Below, piece after piece: positions 3 to 13,423 of a DNA stretch of 14,007 nt; the stretch's first letter is position 1; each line of letters begins with the position of its first letter. The stretch spans positions 1 through 14,007 of the forward strand of contig JBEQLE010000092.1 of assembly GCA_040326155.1 (NCBI GenBank), given 5' to 3'. The position numbers and the translations under genes are program-made. Under the pieces are notes generated by a model that saw only the letters and a list, made by a program, of their open reading frames with translations, ran no database searches and was not told the DNA's origin. The stretch comes from Leptospirales bacterium (GTDB taxonomy: Bacteria; Spirochaetota; Leptospiria; Turneriellales; JAOUFE01).

Positions 3-527
3 CTTTATCGTTTAAGGATACATGAACTTTACGATCTAAGAGATTGGAATGGTTTATTGGGTTATTTGAAAAAACTTGATAAGCATGGTATATTGAATAC
101 GCAATGGAAGTGGCAGGTGGGGCAGGCATATATTTTGAACGGGCAATCTGAAGAAGCCGTAGATTACCTGTTTCATTTACATTCGTTTTATCCTGACCAG
201 CCGGATATACAGTCCGCTTTGCTGGAGGCTTTACAAAAAGCGGGTAAAAAAATTGAGGATTTTTCGTGGCTATCTCGCCCCGAGGTTTCACCGGTTGATG
301 TTCTTTTTCTGGGTAAAAGTATTGATTTTATTCGAAAGTCGAAAAAGGCGATACCGATCTATTTTTTATATACGGCAGTTACGTGTGAGCATAAGGTCTT
401 GTTCGATGAGTTTGATCTTTTGCAGGCACTTAAGGCGGATGATCGATTTCAGGTTTTAAACGAGACTCCTTTCTTTCGATATTCAAAAATCGCAATTGCG
501 CCGAAAGGTTACCAGAATACAGCTTGA
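3..527 (+). CDS. Hypothetical protein, 5'-partial, with a TPR-like helical segment
   Basis: The frame of the 57..527 ORF has no stop back to base 3 (LYRLRIHELYDLRDWNGLLGYLKK...), so the true start is probably left of the window. The segment VGQAYILNGQSEEAVDYLFHLHSFYPDQ resembles a TPR helix pair. Confidence 0.6.
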   Translation, partial: LYRLRIHELYDLRDWNGLLGYLKKLDKHGILNTQWKWQVGQAYILNGQSEEAVDYLFHLHSFYPDQPDIQSALLEALQKAGKKIEDFSWLSRPEVSPVDVLFLGKSIDFIRKSKKAIPIYFLYTAVTCEHKVLFDEFDLLQALKADDRFQVLNETPFFRYSKIAIAPKGYQNTA

Positions 528-568
528 GAATATTCTCGCTGGACTTGATAACCTGTCGGCGTATTAAT

Positions 569-2104
569 TTACTTACCTAAATACCATCGGTGCATAGGAG
601 AGTTTAAAATTTCACTCAACATTCGTTCGGCTTGCAGGGCCGAGGTTCTTTTGGAGCCACCTTTACGTTTGTTCTTTTCGATAATTTCGCGAAGCTCAGG
701 AACAAACTCCTGGTAGAAACGTTCGGCGACTTCATACATTCCGTGCCACTGGGCATAATCGGGGCCCATCATGGAGGCCCCGTGTCGGGCGCGTCGTCCT
801 TCGTGGTGCCATAGGTAGAAATAGGTAAATTCAATTTTATCGTCGAAGGTAACTAAAGAAGTAATTAGCCCTTTTTCGCGAATAAACTTATATAGTTTGG
901 TGGCTGGTGTTCCAAATTTGTCATTATATAGACCAATGAAATTATCAAACTGAATGTACCAGTTGCCTACCCACTGCTCGCTATGGCAATTTCGACAGAC
1001 GCTTTTCATGTCATCTCGACGATCTTTCCAGGGTTTAATTTCGCCACCTTCATCGCCTTTTTTAGGGTAGGTGTCAATTTTTGCAGAAACCGGAGGTCTT
1101 AGATTCCAGGATATGCGGGCCCCTACATCGTGGGTAGCATCCATTTTGTCCGTTGCGCCCATGTGACAGGTGGAACAGGTTGGGCCGGATTCAAAATCTG
1201 TGCCAGGCCACCATTGTTTCTCTTTCATTTGCTCGACCATCTTGGTACGATTTGCGACAAAAGCAATACCGTGTTTTGATTCCATGTAGATTTCAATGTG
1301 TGGATGGTCCGGACCCATGTGACATTTACCACAACTCTCGGGTTGTCTGGCCTGGGCGATTGAAAATTTATGACGCATATGGCAAGAGGAACAGGCTCCT
1401 TTTGAACCGTCGGGATTAATTCTTCCAATACCTGTGTTTGGCCAGGTCGCGGGGTCAAGTTGACCGTTTTCCAGAACTTTTACTTCTGAGCCGTGGCACT
1501 GCATACAACCGGAAACCGCCACCGGAGACTCTGATGTTTTATTGCCATTGGCGTCTCGTGTAACATGGCCTTCTACTACTTCGGCCAGAACATTATCGAG
1601 ACTGCCCAATATAGTACCCGCCTGAGCATGATGACTCGCTGCAAATTGATCTGCCGCAGTTTTATGACAGGTCGCGCAGTCTTTTGGCGATACAATTGTT
1701 GAAATCCAACTTCCATTATGATTATAGGCGTCAGATTCACCTTCTTCCGCCCTGTGGCAGTTGTAACAACCAATACCCTCGCCCGCGTGAGCCGACTCTT
1801 TCCATTGGCGAACAACACCAGGCGTATTAACATTATGACAGTCTACGCATCCTTTGTTTTCTGAAGTTATTGTAATATCGGGAAATTCCAACACCCGTTT
1901 ACGGCCCCCTTCTATCCAGGCTACAATTAGAAGCGAGATAAAAAAGGTTACAGATAGAAATGCTACAATTACTTTTTTAATATTCAACGATACTTCCGTA
2001 TCTCCTTTTAGTGTATTGATAATTTCAGATATAAAATTCGAAAATTTCCCTTTCGAATTATTATGCCAATTTTCACTATCACCCTTCTTTTTTTTAGCTG
2101 CCAT
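569..2104 (-). CDS. Octaheme cytochrome c, hydroxylamine oxidoreductase (HAO) family, N-terminally membrane anchored
   Basis: Eight CxxCH motifs: CVDCH, CYNCH, CATCH, CMQCH, CSSCH, CGKCH, CSTCH, CRNCH. HAO-family signatures CHMGPDHPHIEIYMESKHG (Asp-His pair after the 6th motif) and WHHEGRRARHGASMMGPDYAQWHG. Hydrophobic helix VIVAFLSVTFFISLLIVAWI follows a charged N-terminus. RBS GGAGG upstream of the ATG. Confidence 0.9.
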   Translation of the reverse strand: MAAKKKKGDSENWHNNSKGKFSNFISEIINTLKGDTEVSLNIKKVIVAFLSVTFFISLLIVAWIEGGRKRVLEFPDITITSENKGCVDCHNVNTPGVVRQWKESAHAGEGIGCYNCHRAEEGESDAYNHNGSWISTIVSPKDCATCHKTAADQFAASHHAQAGTILGSLDNVLAEVVEGHVTRDANGNKTSESPVAVSGCMQCHGSEVKVLENGQLDPATWPNTGIGRINPDGSKGACSSCHMRHKFSIAQARQPESCGKCHMGPDHPHIEIYMESKHGIAFVANRTKMVEQMKEKQWWPGTDFESGPTCSTCHMGATDKMDATHDVGARISWNLRPPVSAKIDTYPKKGDEGGEIKPWKDRRDDMKSVCRNCHSEQWVGNWYIQFDNFIGLYNDKFGTPATKLYKFIREKGLITSLVTFDDKIEFTYFYLWHHEGRRARHGASMMGPDYAQWHGMYEVAERFYQEFVPELREIIEKNKRKGGSKRTSALQAERMLSEILNSPMHRWYLGK

Positions 2105-2150
2105 TTTCTTCCTCCGTTATAATTTCGCAATAACCAATGTAAATAATACT

Positions 2151-3206
2151 TTAGTGACCTAATAACATTTCCAGCGCTTCCCAAATTGTAAGAAACACTA
2201 ATATTAATACCATAAATATGCCAATAAGAATGCTTAATTCACTTACCGGTTTTTTTCGTCTAATTGCCGCGTCAATTAGAGGCCAGAACATTAAGAGCAT
2301 AAAACCAAACCCCATAATTAAAACAGCGCCGGTATCCGAGGTGAGTTTCAGAATTCTAAAAGCAAAATAGAAATACCATTCTGGTTTAATATGATCCGGA
2401 GTAACCTGGGGGTTCGCTTCAGACCCCATGTGCATTGGAAAAATAATTGCAAAGCAGGTAATAACCAACATGAGAGTGAGGGCAATTATCATCTCCGTTA
2501 TAAGATGGTCGGGAACAAAAGGGAAGCTTTTCTTCGGTTTGTCGCCGGCAAATTTGAACTTTGTTATACCCTGTGTATGCATGAATGCTATGTGAATCGT
2601 TAGCAATACAATTAGCAACCCGGGCAATATGGCAGCGTGAAAAATAAACATCCGACTTAATGTCCCTTGGCTGATTGATTTTCCGCCTCGGAAGAAATCT
2701 CCGACAATTTCACCTATTAGTGGAATTGCATCGAGCAGTTGAGTAACCACGGTAATCCCCCAGTAGGAGAGTTGCTCGTAGATTAAAGAGTAACCGGTGA
2801 AACCGAGAAGTAGAGTACACGCCAGGATAATCGTTCCAACCATCCAGTTGACTTCTCTGGGTTTACGATAACTACCTGTAAAAAAGACCCGAAATACATG
2901 TAGAATTACGGCCATAATCATAAAATTTGCAGACCAGTAATGTACGCTTCGTATGTACCATCCATACGATATGTTCTCAGTGATGTTTTTTACGCTGTTA
3001 TAGGCGGCGTCTTCGGCTGGTATATAGTAAAATACCAGCAGTATGCCGGTAAGAATCTGAATCATAAAAAGGTAAGCGGGAGTTCCACCCAGAGCCCACC
3101 ACCAGTGTTTTAAATGGTTGGGAACAGGTTCACTACCAAACGATTTAAACGATTCAAACGTAAAAGGTATACGTTCTACAAACCACTTCTTTATATTCTC
3201 TCTCAT
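2151..3206 (-). CDS. qcrB: Cytochrome b of a Rieske/cytb complex (b6-like domain fused to subunit IV-like domain)
   Basis: Heme b His pairs RSVH-x13-H and IFH-x14-H; GSYRKPREVNW; GFTGYSL; Qo-site motif IKPEWYF; about 7 hydrophobic helices in 351 aa. Confidence 0.95.
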   Translation of the reverse strand: MRENIKKWFVERIPFTFESFKSFGSEPVPNHLKHWWWALGGTPAYLFMIQILTGILLVFYYIPAEDAAYNSVKNITENISYGWYIRSVHYWSANFMIMAVILHVFRVFFTGSYRKPREVNWMVGTIILACTLLLGFTGYSLIYEQLSYWGITVVTQLLDAIPLIGEIVGDFFRGGKSISQGTLSRMFIFHAAILPGLLIVLLTIHIAFMHTQGITKFKFAGDKPKKSFPFVPDHLITEMIIALTLMLVITCFAIIFPMHMGSEANPQVTPDHIKPEWYFYFAFRILKLTSDTGAVLIMGFGFMLLMFWPLIDAAIRRKKPVSELSILIGIFMVLILVFLTIWEALEMLLGH

Positions 3207-3223
3207 GTTTTGTCGCTTCGCCT

Positions 3224-3712
3224 TTATACTAACTCATAAAGGGCATAAATTACCCCATCTTTAATTTCCAGCTTACACTTTTTTAAGTTTTTGCCTTCTT
3301 TAGCAGGAGGCCCTTCGATGGATTTACCTTCTGGGTTAAAAACGCCATTATGACAAGGGCAGTAGTATTGGTTTTTTTGCCCTTGCCAAATTACTTTACA
3401 TCCGAGGTGGGGACAGGTGCTTGAAAAAGCTACATACCTTTCTTCTCCTGCGTCTTCACCCAGATCGGTTAAAAGATACGACTCTCCGTCCGGTGTCTGA
3501 AAATTTTTACCTTCTGGTGACAGGTAGGCGGTTCGAACAACAAACAGACGTCTGGTTACCGGATCTCTCTGGTAACCAGTCAGGTAGCGCAAAACAAATC
3601 CGGCAAATGTGCCGTAACTTACAAGCAGGCCCGCCCACATAAAAGAGTTTCGAATGAAACCCTTACGGCTTAAGCCTTTGTCTTCCTCTTTCTTTTGCTT
3701 TTGCTTTGCCAC
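3224..3712 (-). CDS. qcrA: Rieske [2Fe-2S] subunit of a Rieske/cytb complex
   Basis: Box I CPHLGC and box II CPCHNGVF, followed by GPP. Tat-like SRKGFI motif plus a hydrophobic anchor. GTG start; directly upstream of cytochrome b. Confidence 0.95.
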   Translation of the reverse strand: MAKQKQKKEEDKGLSRKGFIRNSFMWAGLLVSYGTFAGFVLRYLTGYQRDPVTRRLFVVRTAYLSPEGKNFQTPDGESYLLTDLGEDAGEERYVAFSSTCPHLGCKVIWQGQKNQYYCPCHNGVFNPEGKSIEGPPAKEGKNLKKCKLEIKDGVIYALYELV

Positions 3713-3720
3713 AATTATCG

Positions 3721-4086
3721 TTATTTCAATGCCGCAGTAATATCATCAATTTCAGATGGTGTCAACCGAACACTTGGCATTTTCATATTGTATTTGCCTT
3801 TAATCTCTTTGTCATAAATGGCTTTAAAATCCTTTCTGCCTTGCTCAGGGTTTACCATATAAATTCGTGTAAATGGTTCACCGCGTTCGGTTGCAATGCC
3901 GGTCAAGTCAGGTCCACTTGTGGCGCTGGAGATTTTTTTGCCATTTGCAGAAAATGCATGACAATATCCACATTTTGCTTTAATCAGTTTAACGCCATTC
4001 TTGGAGTTACCTTCTCCTGCAAAGATGGTGCTTAATCCTATGGTCAGTCCGAGAACTGCAATAATTGCTATAATTTTTTTCATCAT
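3721..4086 (-). CDS. Periplasmic monoheme class I cytochrome c
   Basis: Sec-type signal peptide (MMKKIIAIIAVLGLTIGLSTIFA), single CGYCH, GPDLTG motif, distal Met in MKMP. RBS GGGAG. Confidence 0.92.
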   Translation of the reverse strand: MMKKIIAIIAVLGLTIGLSTIFAGEGNSKNGVKLIKAKCGYCHAFSANGKKISSATSGPDLTGIATERGEPFTRIYMVNPEQGRKDFKAIYDKEIKGKYNMKMPSVRLTPSEIDDITAALK

Positions 4087-4110
4087 TTTCTCCCTGATCT
4101 ACGCACGGAT

Positions 4111-4138
4111 ACATTACCGAACGTAGAATTTGTGTCAA
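4111..4138 (-). promoter_or_regulatory. Putative sigma70-type promoter of the cyt c-Rieske-cyt b-HAO operon
   Basis: On the minus strand: TTGACA (4138-4133), 16-nt spacer, TAATGT (4116-4111), 24 nt upstream of the cytochrome c ATG. Confidence 0.6.
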
Positions 4139-4200
4139 TCCATAATTGGACTTCTTCTCTGTATATAATAACACAAAATTACTCTATACGGCTATATTAG

Positions 4201-4216
4201 TGATAAAATATTGTCA
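4201..4216. promoter_or_regulatory. Imperfect palindrome, candidate regulator site in the divergent operon/nth intergenic region
   Basis: TGATAA-AATA-TTGTCA; 12 of 16 positions are self-complementary; half-sites resemble Fur-family boxes. Confidence 0.3.
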
Positions 4217-4224
4217 ACAACTAT

Positions 4225-4875
4225 ATGAATAATAATGATCGAACCCAGGAAAAGTTTGTAGATGAGCTTTTTACCCGTCTGAAAAATCATTTTGGAGAAC
4301 CTGTAACCCCGCTGTTTCACAAAAATCCAGAACAACTAACAGTAGCGGTAGTTTTATCGGCGCAGACCACGGATGATAACGTGAATAAAGTTACTCCCGG
4401 CCTCTTTGAGGCGTATCCCGACCTGGAAAGTCTTGCCAAAGCGGAAATCTCCGATGTAGAAAAATTGATTTTCTCCACCGGCTTTTATAAAAACAAAGCA
4501 AAGCATATAGTAAGGTTGGCCCAGATGGTTGTGGAAAAACACCATGGTAAAATTCCAGCCAATTTTGATTCCTTATTGGAACTTCCGGGGGTGGGCAGAA
4601 AAACAGCGAACGTAGTCATGGATTGTGCTTTTCACACTTCCGTCGGTGTCGTTGTCGATACCCATGTAAAACGCCTGTCGAACCGGTTTGCTTTGACCGG
4701 GAATTCTGACCCGATAAAAATTGAAAAAGACCTGATGAAAGTGTTGCCGCAAAAATACTGGAAAGATATAACTTTATATATGATCTACCTGGGTCGCAAA
4801 TATTGCGTAGCCAGAAAACCAAATTGCCCCGACTGTTTTTTAAATGACATCTGCCCTTCTGCAATAATGGGATGA
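4225..4875 (+). CDS. nth: Endonuclease III (DNA glycosylase/AP lyase)
   Basis: LSAQTTD, HhH motif LPGVGRKTANVV with catalytic Lys, VDTHV, and C-terminal [4Fe-4S] motif C-x6-C-x2-C-x5-C (CVARKPNCPDCFLNDIC). Confidence 0.97.
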   Translation: MNNNDRTQEKFVDELFTRLKNHFGEPVTPLFHKNPEQLTVAVVLSAQTTDDNVNKVTPGLFEAYPDLESLAKAEISDVEKLIFSTGFYKNKAKHIVRLAQMVVEKHHGKIPANFDSLLELPGVGRKTANVVMDCAFHTSVGVVVDTHVKRLSNRFALTGNSDPIKIEKDLMKVLPQKYWKDITLYMIYLGRKYCVARKPNCPDCFLNDICPSAIMG

Positions 4876-4977: not shown

Positions 4978-5427
4978 TTATTTTGCAAATCGCTGGTTCA
5001 GGTTTACTCCGATCATGAACAATACGGGAATTAAAAACAGAACGATCAGGGTTGAAAACAGTAAACCGTATCCGAGAAAAAGACACATCTGAGAAATAAA
5101 TGGATCCATTCCCCCGAGTCCATAGGCGGTGGGGGAAACTCCGAGTATGGTTGTTACGGTGGTCAGTAGTATTGGCCTCAACCTGCCTACCGCGCCGTTT
5201 AATATTGCATCGTGATTTAATATACCTTTCGATTTTTCTTTAATCGTATGTACCATGACTATGGCGCCGGGGTAAATTACCGTAATGTAAACTTGCTTGA
5301 AAGTTATATTGGGGAATCCCTCTTTTTGCATATGAACAATGCTGTTTATTCCCAAAACGGTGACGGCAAAAATCACCAATTTTACAACCAGGGGGCGATC
5401 TAAAAAAAATGCGACGAGTCGGGTCAT
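4978..5427 (-). pseudogene. RND (AcrB/CzcA-type) permease remnant with a large in-frame internal deletion
   Basis: Residues 1-55 match an RND N-terminus (FFLDRP, TM1, EGFPNI, ITVIYPGA). They join directly to an RND C-terminus (IVMV, RLRPILLTT, TM12 GLLFSTLIVLFLIPVLF). The ORF is 149 aa, against roughly 1000 aa for intact permeases. Confidence 0.85.
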
Positions 5428-5591: not shown

Positions 5592-5933
5592 TTAATTGAC
5601 ATGGCTAAATTGCAAAAGATTATATTTTTCCGGTAACGATTTATCTTTTTCAAGCAATGACAACATTCTTTGGGCTGTACCATTTGGTTCATTCCGGCCG
5701 GATTCCCAAGCCTCTACGGTCTTTATGGAAACTCCCATCAGCATTGCAAAAGATCGTTGCGATAAATTTTGTGTGTTTCTGATTTTTTTTACCTCTTTCC
5801 CTTTAAAGTGAGAGAGAGGGCTTATGGTTACTTGCTTAGATTTTGCCTTAATTGCTTTATTGCCTTTTTCGAACTCAATGGCTTCATTTAGACCTTTTAT
5901 GATACTCTCTGCTACTTTACTTTTTGTTGCCAT
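5592..5933 (-). CDS. Xre/Cro HTH protein, HigA-like type II antitoxin
   Basis: Start refined to ATG at 5933 (MATKSKVAESIIKGLNEAIEF...). HTH segment VKKIRNTQNLSQRSFAMLMGVSIKTVEAWESGRNEP. Lies downstream of a toxin remnant, giving toxin-first (higBA) order. Confidence 0.88.
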   Translation of the reverse strand: MATKSKVAESIIKGLNEAIEFEKGNKAIKAKSKQVTISPLSHFKGKEVKKIRNTQNLSQRSFAMLMGVSIKTVEAWESGRNEPNGTAQRMLSLLEKDKSLPEKYNLLQFSHVN

Positions 5934-6069
5934 TCGTACCTGCAATCACATCTCCGAAATCGGGGTTGTTTGTTAAAAATATTTCTAACTCATTCAAGTC
6001 ATCATCATTTAAACCTAATGCACTCCATTTCTTTTGAAATTCAGGAAGTTCTATAAAAACTCTTGTCAC
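5917..6069 (-). pseudogene. Truncated HigB-2/RelE-family toxin, N-terminal half only (not in the ORF track)
   Basis: GTG at 6069 translates as MTRVFIELPEFQKKWSALGLNDDDLNELEIFLTNNPDFGDVIAGTNGNKK* (50 aa). The NP-x-x-GDVI-x-GT-x-G motif is typical of HigB-2-like toxins, but the following RKxR...RVIY half is absent. Confidence 0.82.
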
Positions 6070-11775: not shown

Positions 11776-11834
11776 GTATCAATTTCCAGTTCAGATGCGG
11801 TTTGTAAAGCAATTCGTAATTTATTGCCAAAACT

Positions 11835-12440
11835 TTATTGCCACTTCAGGCGAAACCTTTTATTAGCCCAGGCCTTCCAACTGAGGTGGGGGCGTGTTCC
11901 CTGGGGCAATTTTTGTTGTTCAATTTTTTCGTAAAGTCCGGTCTGGGTATATTGCTGGTAAAGATTGGGATAATAACGGGTTTCCAGGCTGAGGTCTCCT
12001 TTGAACAAAAGTGCCACTGAATTTAAAACTTTTTTCTCTTCTCGGGAAAAAACATAGGGTGGCTCCACATGAGCGCGGTAGACCATTCCTTTCAAAACCA
12101 TCATCGGGCCGTGCTTGGTTTTTTTAGTTACAACCTGGGGAAATATCTCAATTTCTTTTTTGGTAACCATTTCGTGCATAATCTCGTTAAATAACAGAGG
12201 CTGGGGGCTGCCTTCAATGTGAAGGTAATCCAGTTCGGTTATAGTTTTTTCGTATTTTTGATAATAATGGCCATCCGAATAGTAAAGGTGCTTACAAAGC
12301 GTCACCCGATTCAATTTTTCGGGAATTTTATGTATAAAAAACAATATGGCAGAACGAAGTTTGGGAGCCTGGCGATACAACGGCAAAGCCTGGAGATCTT
12401 CTTCGGGGGGACTTTTTTTTTCCTTTTCAGTGTTACTCAT
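11835..12440 (-). CDS. Panacea/DUF4065 (SocA-like) domain protein
   Basis: KLRSAILFFI...LCKHLYYSDGHYYQKYEKTITELDYLHIEGSPQP follows the Panacea pattern KL.KLLYY.D......IT...Y.....GPVP, with SPQP in place of GPVP; FSREEKKVL follows. Start moved to ATG 12440 to avoid overlap with lipB. Confidence 0.7.
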   Translation of the reverse strand: MSNTEKEKKSPPEEDLQALPLYRQAPKLRSAILFFIHKIPEKLNRVTLCKHLYYSDGHYYQKYEKTITELDYLHIEGSPQPLLFNEIMHEMVTKKEIEIFPQVVTKKTKHGPMMVLKGMVYRAHVEPPYVFSREEKKVLNSVALLFKGDLSLETRYYPNLYQQYTQTGLYEKIEQQKLPQGTRPHLSWKAWANKRFRLKWQ

Positions 12441-12457
12441 AAGTCTATCTAAACTCC

Positions 12458-13069
12458 ATGGAAATCGCATCAGACTATAAAGGTCTAATCGAGTTTGCCG
12501 AGAGTCTCAAGTTGATGGAAGAAAAATTTAATGAGGCTGTACAGCAAAAAAAAACATATTTAACGGGATGCCAACACCCCCTCGTATACACAGCCGGTCT
12601 AAAAAGCGAACCCGCCCATATTTTAGAAAAAATTCCAGTCATAAAAGTACGCAGAGGTGGTTCCGTAACCGTCCACAACCCCGGCCAACTCATGTTCTAC
12701 ACCGTATTGGCAATAGACGACTCCAACGGAGGTCTGGTCGGCCATATTCGCAAGCTCGAGAAAGCAATCATTCAAACATTAGCCAACTACGGCGTCCGGG
12801 CCTTCCAACACAAAAAATACACAGGTGTCTGGACCATGCACGGTAAAATCGCCTTTATAGGCCTCGGCCTCAAAAAAAAATGCATCTACCACGGCGCCGC
12901 CATCAACATAACCAACAACCTGAACGACTACAACCCCATCAAAAGCTGCGGCCTCCCCGAACCCATCACAAGACTAATCGACGAAATACCAGTTGTGGAA
13001 AACCCCACCATACCAAGCCCCGAAACCTTCTTCCACGAAATGGTAAAAATCTGGCGCCACGATCGGTAA
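12458..13069 (+). CDS. lipB: Lipoyl(octanoyl) transferase
   Basis: QHPLVYTAG, RRGGSVTVHNPGQL, GVW, KIAFIG, HGAAIN and IKSCG (catalytic Lys and Cys). Confidence 0.93.
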   Translation: MEIASDYKGLIEFAESLKLMEEKFNEAVQQKKTYLTGCQHPLVYTAGLKSEPAHILEKIPVIKVRRGGSVTVHNPGQLMFYTVLAIDDSNGGLVGHIRKLEKAIIQTLANYGVRAFQHKKYTGVWTMHGKIAFIGLGLKKKCIYHGAAINITNNLNDYNPIKSCGLPEPITRLIDEIPVVENPTIPSPETFFHEMVKIWRHDR

Positions 13070-13071
13070 GT

Positions 13072-13316
13072 GCCAGGTGAAGTTTGGTTGTGGAAATCCA
13101 CAAGAGGAGGCCCACGGTTGGGGAAATCCCTAGGAGAAATCTCATATGGGGAAAGTGGAGATTATACACCTCGCGTTTTCTCGTCTTTCCCCTGGCTTTG
13201 GCCCGCAAGCGGTCCGCCGCCACCCCATACGATATTTTTCGGGGGTGTGGTGGTGGGTGTGGCCAATTATTAGTAGTTGATAAAGGGTACAGACCCAAAT
13301 ATCTTGTTTTATCAGC
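13072..13316 (+). ncRNA. Candidate structured RNA or dispersed palindromic repeat element (family unknown)
   Basis: Six stem-loops identified by eye: three with a G-AAAU-C loop, GGGGAAAG/CTTTCCCC, a long G.U-rich stem closed by TTGGCC/GGCCAA, and GTTGATAAA/TTTATCAGC. The overlapping ORFs do not look like proteins. Confidence 0.4.
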
Positions 13317-13423
13317 CAATCTATTGATAAATCACATTATACGAAGGATTTGTTTTTGCCGGTTTCAATTTGAGTTATCTATACTCTACTGACATCAGCT
13401 TTTTCCGCCATTTGAATTTGTGA

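Follow-up and report, generated by a model that had tools for sequence, protein, structure and literature searches.

What does an octaheme cytochrome c of the hydroxylamine oxidoreductase (HAO) fold do when it is encoded beside a Rieske protein and a cytochrome b, in a genome with no family match to cytochrome c1? The locus that raises this question lies in a 14,007-nt stretch of contig JBEQLE010000092.1 (host assembly GCA_040326155.1), which we call the window and to which positions refer unless another contig is named. Four co-oriented open-reading frames (ORFs) on its minus strand, with intergenic gaps of 8, 17 and 46 bp, encode the following proteins in the order that a preliminary description of this DNA had given:

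3721..4086, minus strand: monoheme class I cytochrome c, 121 aa, one CxxCH motif, PF00034
3224..3712, minus strand: Rieske [2Fe-2S] protein, 162 aa, GTG start, PF00355
2151..3206, minus strand: cytochrome b, 351 aa, PF00033 and PF00032
569..2104, minus strand: HAO-fold octaheme cytochrome c, 511 aa, eight CxxCH motifs, PF13447

With moderate confidence, we read these genes as a menaquinol:nitrite oxidoreductase in which the octaheme would stand in the place of cytochrome c1 and which would also feed NapA. The cluster is a real, conserved module, and it is of a kind already proposed in print. As far as gene content tells, what this locus adds is a family-specific cytochrome, a tight link to NapA without NapC or NapGH, and a sulfur-oxidising spirochaete as the probable host.

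Conservation of the neighborhood is the first line of evidence. The four genes keep their order in all three other genomes of the host family (G001-G003; the host is G000), which leads us to reject chance adjacency. The run Rieske-cytochrome b-octaheme-napA-napG-napH is found in G009, and Rieske-cytochrome b-octaheme-napD-napA-tetraheme in G117; in G082 the contig with the octaheme gene continues into napD-napA, and the Rieske/cytochrome b pair ends another contig. We also inspected the best 80 of 586 metagenomic relatives of the octaheme, 54 of which carry at least 1.5 kb of upstream sequence. Cytochrome b and Rieske genes lie directly upstream of the octaheme gene in 11 of these 54 informative loci (two share an identical octaheme). 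The synteny of Rieske, cytochrome b and HAO-like genes that the preliminary description proposed to look for is present within the host family and beyond it.

The octaheme has other partners as well. Ten named genome loci comprise two with the Rieske/cytochrome b pair, five with a tetraheme resembling NapC/NrfH, two with neither, and one that is not a true relative. NrfD is encoded directly upstream of the octaheme in seven loci, and NapC, nonaheme-cytochrome b561 fusions, NarK, NarG, Amt and nirA also occur nearby; napA matches are present in 9/80 metagenome loci (72 of the 101 other neighboring ORFs were scanned). Given this variety of upstream partners, the octaheme swaps quinol dehydrogenases while keeping nitrate and nitrite genes as neighbors. 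In G003 alone, a 477-aa five-heme protein with weak similarity to NapC/NrfH is encoded just upstream of the four-gene cluster (L018:4100-5533).

A survey of 190 genomes of the host's class ties the module to NapA. Octaheme matches occur in nine genomes, seven of them at E <1e-200, and a cytochrome b of the module type (E <1e-160) occurs in the same seven. NapA exceeds its cut-off in nine genomes, namely all seven with the module and 2/183 others. Five of the seven were checked for NapH and NapC: none has NapH over its cut-off, and the NapC matches are either weak or to the octaheme itself. The two remaining octahemes (G068 and G077; L164:7563-8804 and L165:4227-5504) are distant (~34% identity), with neither Rieske/cytochrome b neighbors nor a NapA match in the genome. 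Many class genomes also encode cytochrome b fusions of ~700-750 aa (L182:2534-9428 of G028; L184:1127-4926 and 12614-14584 of G066); the fusion in G028 carries ferredoxin and FlpD-like domains and adjoins a heme-copper subunit and a cytochrome cd1 with two heme-c motifs.

The second line of evidence is the octaheme itself. It has exactly eight CxxCH motifs, all ending in His, and one hydrophobic segment at its N-terminus, in agreement with the preliminary description. The features that matter here are:

1913..1969, minus strand: N-terminal transmembrane helix, residues 46-64, with heme motif 1 about 20 residues later
1493..1507, minus strand: heme motif 4, C200-H204, the putative catalytic heme
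1304..1309, minus strand: D266-H267, aligned with D267-H268 of N. europaea HAO (1fgj)
746..748, minus strand: W453, at the putative position of the cross-linking tyrosine

We take heme 4 to be catalytic and D267-H268 of N. europaea HAO to be the distal-pocket pair; W453 presumably occupies the site of the cross-linking tyrosine of the same enzyme. Over 93 aligned octaheme rows, D266 is kept in 92 and H267 and W453 in all 93, and the C-terminal helical domain is conserved to the same degree (92-93/93 rows). W453 aligns with a Phe of the octaheme cytochrome IhOCC of Ignicoccus hospitalis (4qo5) and, in a non-significant stretch, with a Trp of the Tyr-less 6h5l. IhOCC is the closest Protein Data Bank (PDB) entry by sequence (1e-45; 8e-74 in a profile search). 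It is also the best structural match of an AlphaFold2 model of the octaheme (pLDDT 86.9), at Z 27.9 and 3.3 Å rmsd over 398 aligned residues; the next match has Z 22.7, HAO and hydrazine dehydrogenase (HDH) lie at Z 19-23, and NrfA and octaheme nitrite reductase (ONR) at Z 9-11. From sequence and model, we assign the protein to the HAO-fold octahemes (the HAO/HDH/IhOCC clade) and, within them, to the IhOCC/Nitrospira-ONR subfamily. The reductive nitrogen-oxide role that had been suggested for it agrees with this placement and with the napA, narG, narK, amt and nirA neighbors of its relatives.

Two other identities were considered and rejected. An oxidative HAO or HDH is contradicted by a score of 76.9 bits to the HDH equivalog, against a cut-off of 900, and the Trp at the presumed cross-link position would fit with this. 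An ONR of the CxxCK type, or NrfA, is contradicted by eight CxxCH motifs with no CxxCK and by a Z of about 10 versus 28 for IhOCC. The window octaheme is also ~22 residues shorter at its C-terminus (569-600) than most close relatives, a trait found in a few other homologues.

The third line of evidence comes from the proteins that would deliver the electrons, whose motifs are located as follows:

3338..3415, minus strand: Rieske boxes C100-C105 and C118-H121, with Gly123 and Phe125 in place of the high-potential Ser and Tyr
2373..2384, minus strand: PEWY quinol-oxidation (Qo) sequence motif, cytochrome b residues 275-278

The proposal that this pair could run a Q-cycle stands at the level of motifs: the four His ligands (H89, H103, H190, H205) and PEWY of cytochrome b are intact, as are both Rieske boxes with their disulfide cysteines and a Tat-like SRKGF motif. 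Gly and Phe replace the Rieske Ser and Tyr in 15/15 aligned rows. In yeast, loss of these residues lowers the potential by 130 and 65 mV, and Rieske potentials below 200 mV go with low-potential quinones, with one exception noted (PMC12954380). The substitutions suggest a Rieske cluster of low potential, suited to menaquinol. Use of menaquinol, also anticipated earlier, is further supported by an MqnC homologue (60% identical) in the host.

Cytochrome b is unsplit, with seven hydrophobic segments, a b6-like N-terminal half and the b6-like spacing of 15 residues between His ligands. Its closest PDB sequence matches are cytochromes b6, and its model (pLDDT 72) confirms the fold only. His210 and Glu238 are placed at the putative Qi site; His210 is common to the four host-family rows and is Arg in the other 11. 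The heme ci cysteine is missing (Ala38) and is present in 6/15 aligned rows; it varies even inside the host family, being Ala in the window and G001 and Cys in G002 and G003. We reject a canonical cytochrome bc1, because the genome has no cytochrome c1 match and the Rieske protein has no high-potential residues. A cytochrome b6f or b6c does not fit either, since cytochrome b is a single 351-aa chain with Ala38 at the heme ci position. These motifs and the Gly/Phe Rieske make a menaquinol-oxidising Q-cycle structurally possible.

The monoheme cytochrome c that leads the cluster is basic and begins with a hydrophobic stretch (residues 5-23), a likely signal peptide. Its close homologues are confined to the host family, one further genome and one metagenome locus; it is co-encoded with the module in 4/4 host-family genomes and in 1/80 metagenome loci, a distribution that marks it as an apparently family-specific addition. 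No solved structure is close to it (best E 0.007), and its weak class-level matches, which include the N-terminal heme domains of cytochromes cd1 (two checked), are too weak to name a partner. Its occurrence where the nap genes are split from the module suggests a role as electron shuttle.

From these parts we propose the following path. Menaquinol would be oxidised at the PEWY site, one electron passing to the low-potential Rieske cluster and the other reaching, by way of hemes bL and bH, a Qi site built around His210 and Glu238 without heme ci. The Rieske head would then reduce heme 1 of the octaheme, which, following directly on the membrane anchor, could fill the role of cytochrome c1. Electrons would pass along the heme chain to heme 4, where the lack of a tyrosine cross-link would favor reduction and where nitrite would be reduced, most likely to ammonium. 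NapA would be fed from the same outlet. Its gene follows the octaheme gene in three other class genomes; in the host family napD, napA and a tetraheme napB lie elsewhere, and there the added monoheme cytochrome c would be the likely shuttle to NapA. The electrons could plausibly come from sulfur oxidation (dsrABL, dsrEFH, dsrC, dsrMKJOP and a sulfide:quinone reductase, SQR) as well as from organics.

Much of this path has precedents. Closest is the Nitrospira module, in which petBC (Rieske and cytochrome b) and an octaheme called ONR or OCC stand in the same order and the octaheme is homologous and likewise carries a membrane helix. The window octaheme is 47% identical over ~470 residues to the octahemes of L087 and L100, whose sequence clusters are named Nitrospira and whose genes run amt-Rieske-cytochrome b-octaheme-amt/nirA; cytochrome b and Rieske are 34% identical. 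Published work assigns the Nitrospira octaheme a role in reducing nitrite, with electrons from the neighboring petBC (PMC6311188, PMC6606698, PMC12342949, PMC5767232). Its co-localisation with the Rieske/cytochrome b pair led to the suggestion of direct coupling to the quinone pool (PMC6311188), high expression has been found to match (PMC6606698), and expression was confirmed by RT-PCR (PMC5767232). petBC lies beside most ONR genes of the Nitrospira type and NapC beside a quarter (PMC12342949), a swap that we also find among relatives of the window octaheme. The Nitrospira system has amt and glnA for neighbors and is interpreted as assimilatory. In the window and in G001-G003, by contrast, the module has neither gene nearby; its cluster is led by the extra monoheme cytochrome c, it tracks NapA, and its host is a spirochaete with dsr genes.

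A second precedent is Caldithrix abyssi, compared here by gene content only, in which Rieske and cytochrome b genes (Cabys_2558/2557) and an epsilon-Hao gene (Cabys_2556) lie in a nap cluster. Direct Rieske-to-octaheme transfer, generation of proton-motive force, and ammonification through the octaheme in the absence of NrfA have all been proposed for it (PMC5317091). Like our host, Caldithrix has a Rieske/cytochrome b pair without c1 beside a Tyr-less HAO-like octaheme, an alternative complex III, and, in the published account, no NrfA and no NapC. It differs in having a single locus with napGH and, by the same account, a genome that encodes no soluble cytochrome c of the monoheme kind, whereas our host has nap at a separate locus, no NapH match, and a monoheme cytochrome gene within the cluster. 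With quinol-to-octaheme transfer already proposed for both Nitrospira and Caldithrix, the idea that the locus represents a newly recognised module is not supported.

Further relatives are more distant. In IhOCC, M445 is matched by a Met and the residue opposite W453 is not a Tyr; the protein has been termed an octaheme nitrite reductase without P460 (PMC9250108). It is archaeal, is 31% identical to the window octaheme in the structural alignment, and has no Rieske/cytochrome b partner mentioned in the excerpted literature on it. The Kuenenia cluster Kuste4569-4574 also combines Rieske and cytochrome b with an HAO-like octaheme, which is proposed to reduce nitrite to NO (PMC12954380). It contains, however, a cytochrome b split into four-helix b6 and subunit IV, heme cN, an NAD(P) oxidoreductase, a separate octaheme cytochrome, and a Rieske protein of +303 mV that retains Ser and Tyr (PMC12954380), where the window cluster has no such components and a Gly/Phe Rieske. 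We therefore reject the notion of a minimal, four-gene derivative of the anammox cluster. Oxidative HAO and HDH (1fgj, 4n4j, 6hif) share the fold, the eight hemes and the D/H distal pair; the window octaheme differs from them in its membrane anchor and in the Trp at the presumed cross-link position. Among titles and opening abstract lines, subscription papers aside, we found neither a biochemical test of such a complex nor a report of a spirochaete module.

Several observations weigh against a nitrite-reducing quinol oxidase of this design. The Rieske/cytochrome b pair is missing from 43 of the 54 informative metagenome loci, and napGH adjoin the module in G009. The seven module genomes fall in only four families, so kinship overstates the link to NapA; NrfA, found in 0/7 of them and in 27/183 others, is not significantly excluded (Fisher p 0.6). 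Direct and C-terminal-profile alignments with oxidative HAOs end short of the cross-link region, so that the assignment of W453 stays presumptive. Given a mild donor, which a Rieske cluster also is, the nearest Tyr-less anammox HAO to have been tested forms NO instead of ammonium. HAO-family proteins form trimers and cytochromes b form dimers, a mismatch in symmetry. The host has a second quinol outlet, in the form of a gene run for alternative complex III, and other possible nitrite sinks in AsrABC with NirC, a NirA/Sir-family protein and Hcp.

A single origin of the Rieske/cytochrome b-linked octahemes is likewise not shown, because the 18 linked rows among 93, clustered as they are in the tree (a quick search of the octaheme subfamily only, rooted on four distant rows), need six changes. 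In favor of our reading, on visual inspection the anchor is uncleaved in linked octahemes while the remaining ones have a cleavable signal peptide instead, and mean peak hydropathy is 2.19 and 1.64, respectively. A hand-made anchor motif occurs in 7/12 linked octahemes and 0/50 others (three short rows dropped), a count that also favors our reading but is circular by construction, the motif having been derived from the same sequences; the motif is also present in 81 of the 120 closest octaheme homologues.

Which chemistry, then, would the module perform? HAOs without the tyrosine reduce nitrite and barely oxidise (PMC8042395), in line with our reading, but the product could differ from the one we favor. 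With the same wiring, nitrite might be reduced only to NO, or the octaheme might serve mainly as a detoxifying sink for hydroxylamine or NO. Supplied with ascorbate and phenazine ethosulfate, the anammox protein Kustc0458/7 converts nitrite to NO, and epsilon-HAOs also reduce hydroxylamine (PMC8042395). Relatives of the octaheme adjoin hcp and a qNor-like gene (L012, L014, L104), and a heme-copper subunit with a monoheme partner on host contig C44 could be an NO reductase. We nevertheless consider this outcome unlikely: NosZ was not found in the host, the Nitrospira homologue has amt and glnA as neighbors and reaches high expression when nitrite is the sole nitrogen source (PMC6606698, PMC5767232), and the Caldithrix homologue is the one proposed for ammonification without NrfA (PMC5317091).

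Alternatively, the octaheme could act chiefly as a wire in the place of cytochrome c1, within a general complex III that reduces the co-encoded cytochrome c for NapA and oxygen reductases. The host genome yielded just one Rieske protein and one cytochrome b of the complex-III type, two CuA-type oxidases are present, a soluble cytochrome c accompanies the module throughout the family, and the module tracks NapA closely. A wire would not account for the near-invariance of D266/H267, W453 and the C-terminal helical domain, nor for the pairing of this octaheme type with several unrelated quinol dehydrogenases and nitrogen-cycle genes, and alternative complex III is at hand to serve the oxidases. 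To this role we give a low probability. Nitrogen assimilation, in which periplasmic nitrite would be turned into ammonium for uptake rather than energy, is what has been proposed in print for the Nitrospira system with its 47%-identical octaheme, and two Amt genes and GlnA in the host would suit it; with no amt or glnA beside the module in the window or in G001-G003 and a link to respiratory NapA across the class, it seems improbable here. A function in sulfur metabolism or in the oxidative direction (e.g. sulfite reduction, or hydroxylamine oxidation into the quinone pool) could invoke DsrA, present in 8/190 class genomes (5/7 with the module, including 4/4 of the host family, versus 3/183 others), the sulfite or tetrathionate reduction by several octahemes of the wider family (PMC9250108) and a Tyr three residues ahead of W453 in 88/93 rows, but it is highly improbable given that one family accounts for four of the five module genomes with DsrA, that structure groups the octaheme with IhOCC and HAO rather than with ONR and NrfA, that its HDH score is far below the cut-off, and that nitrate and nitrite genes are its neighbors across the 80 loci.

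The menaquinol:nitrite oxidoreductase that we favor has to be seen against the rest of the host genome, which is 94.7% complete. Three FlaA matches over cut-off and close homologues named Spirochaetia and Leptospiraceae indicate that the host is probably a spirochaete of the Leptospira-containing class, as the preliminary description had surmised; a LipL32 search gave no match anywhere, controls included. The absence of cytochrome c1, and with it of a separate c1-containing bc complex, holds for the whole genome, cytochrome f not having been searched with a model of its own. NrfA, NirK, NirS and NosZ have no match over cut-off. NapA is over its cut-off and is encoded with NapD and a tetraheme NapB-like protein in a cluster without napC, napG or napH (G000:C159:2503-5761, L021), and napA with a tetraheme is likewise found in G001-G003 and G117.

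The sulfur genes comprise DsrAB, a DsrL-like protein, DsrEFH, DsrE2, DsrC and DsrMKJOP, plus an SQR homologue, located as follows:

G000:C164:1505-5621 and 11813-13387 (L117), G000:C101:288-6210 (L118) and G000:C22:51741-53003: Dsr set and SQR

With 13 bp between dsrB and the dsrL-like gene, there is no dsrD at that place, and dsrL without dsrD is read as oxidative (PMC10591310). By this pattern the host dsr genes are assigned to the oxidative type; rDsr in Leptospirae genomes has already been reported (PMC12687941).

Other host genes deserve mention in their own right. On G000:C99 (L122:5471-9271), the run asrA-asrB-nirC-asrC places a NirC nitrite transporter gene within a cluster for an anaerobic sulfite reductase, which might act as a sink for nitrite in the cytoplasm. 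Two clusters of the heme-copper oxidase family are unclassified, one with a CuA subunit and SCO (G000:C83, L120:3394-6654) and one with a monoheme partner (G000:C44, L119:5048-6714), and either may be an NO reductase. A role in extracellular electron transfer is possible for several large multiheme cytochromes (18, 16, 12, 9 and 8 CxxCH), some of them encoded next to potential porin genes:

G000:C55:51499-56471, C167:6055-10280 and C105:1596-2486: large multiheme cytochromes

The claim that the four genes lie behind one promoter could not be confirmed: a consensus promoter scan of 400-4400 gave 11 sites versus 9.1 expected by chance and found no full promoter upstream of the cluster, nor is there an FNR or CRP box within two mismatches upstream of it in the window. 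What is present there is a hexamer:

4133..4138, minus strand: TTGACA, a possible -35 box, 52 bp upstream of the cluster, with no consensus -10

A similar hexamer lies 57-83 bp upstream of the cluster in three of four relatives, and the cytochrome b gene has a weak terminator-like hairpin at its end (2171-2201). On one side the cluster adjoins an endonuclease III gene in divergent orientation, and on the other a convergent ORF without assigned function (57-527, plus strand, 156 aa, no Pfam match), homologues of which (40-43%) hold the same place in G001 and G002. Farther along the minus strand of the window are an AcrB-family fragment (4978-5427, 149 aa), an HTH antitoxin-like protein (5592-5945) and a SocA/Panacea-domain protein (11835-12470).

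The module is widespread, with names that include Nitrospira, Nitrospinota, Acidobacteriota, Planctomycetota, Myxococcota and spirochaetes. Surveys of nitrate ammonification count nrfA, and would miss it or misname it "hydroxylamine dehydrogenase". The surprise is modest, since the idea is already in print, and the value of this locus is as a compact, single-copy case with a clean NapA link that points to a simple bench test. More tentatively, as a possibility short of an even chance, the entire chain from nitrate to ammonium in the host family could draw on the module as its sole quinol outlet: the octaheme would reduce nitrite, the monoheme cytochrome c would feed NapA without NapC, NapGH or NrfAH, the Q-cycle would conserve energy, and reverse-Dsr sulfur oxidation could drive the chain. 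We found no description in the literature of such a sulfur-driven, nitrate-ammonifying lifestyle for spirochaetes. If the Q-cycle runs, menaquinol-driven nitrite reduction would move charge across the membrane, which, to our knowledge, NrfH and NapC do not.

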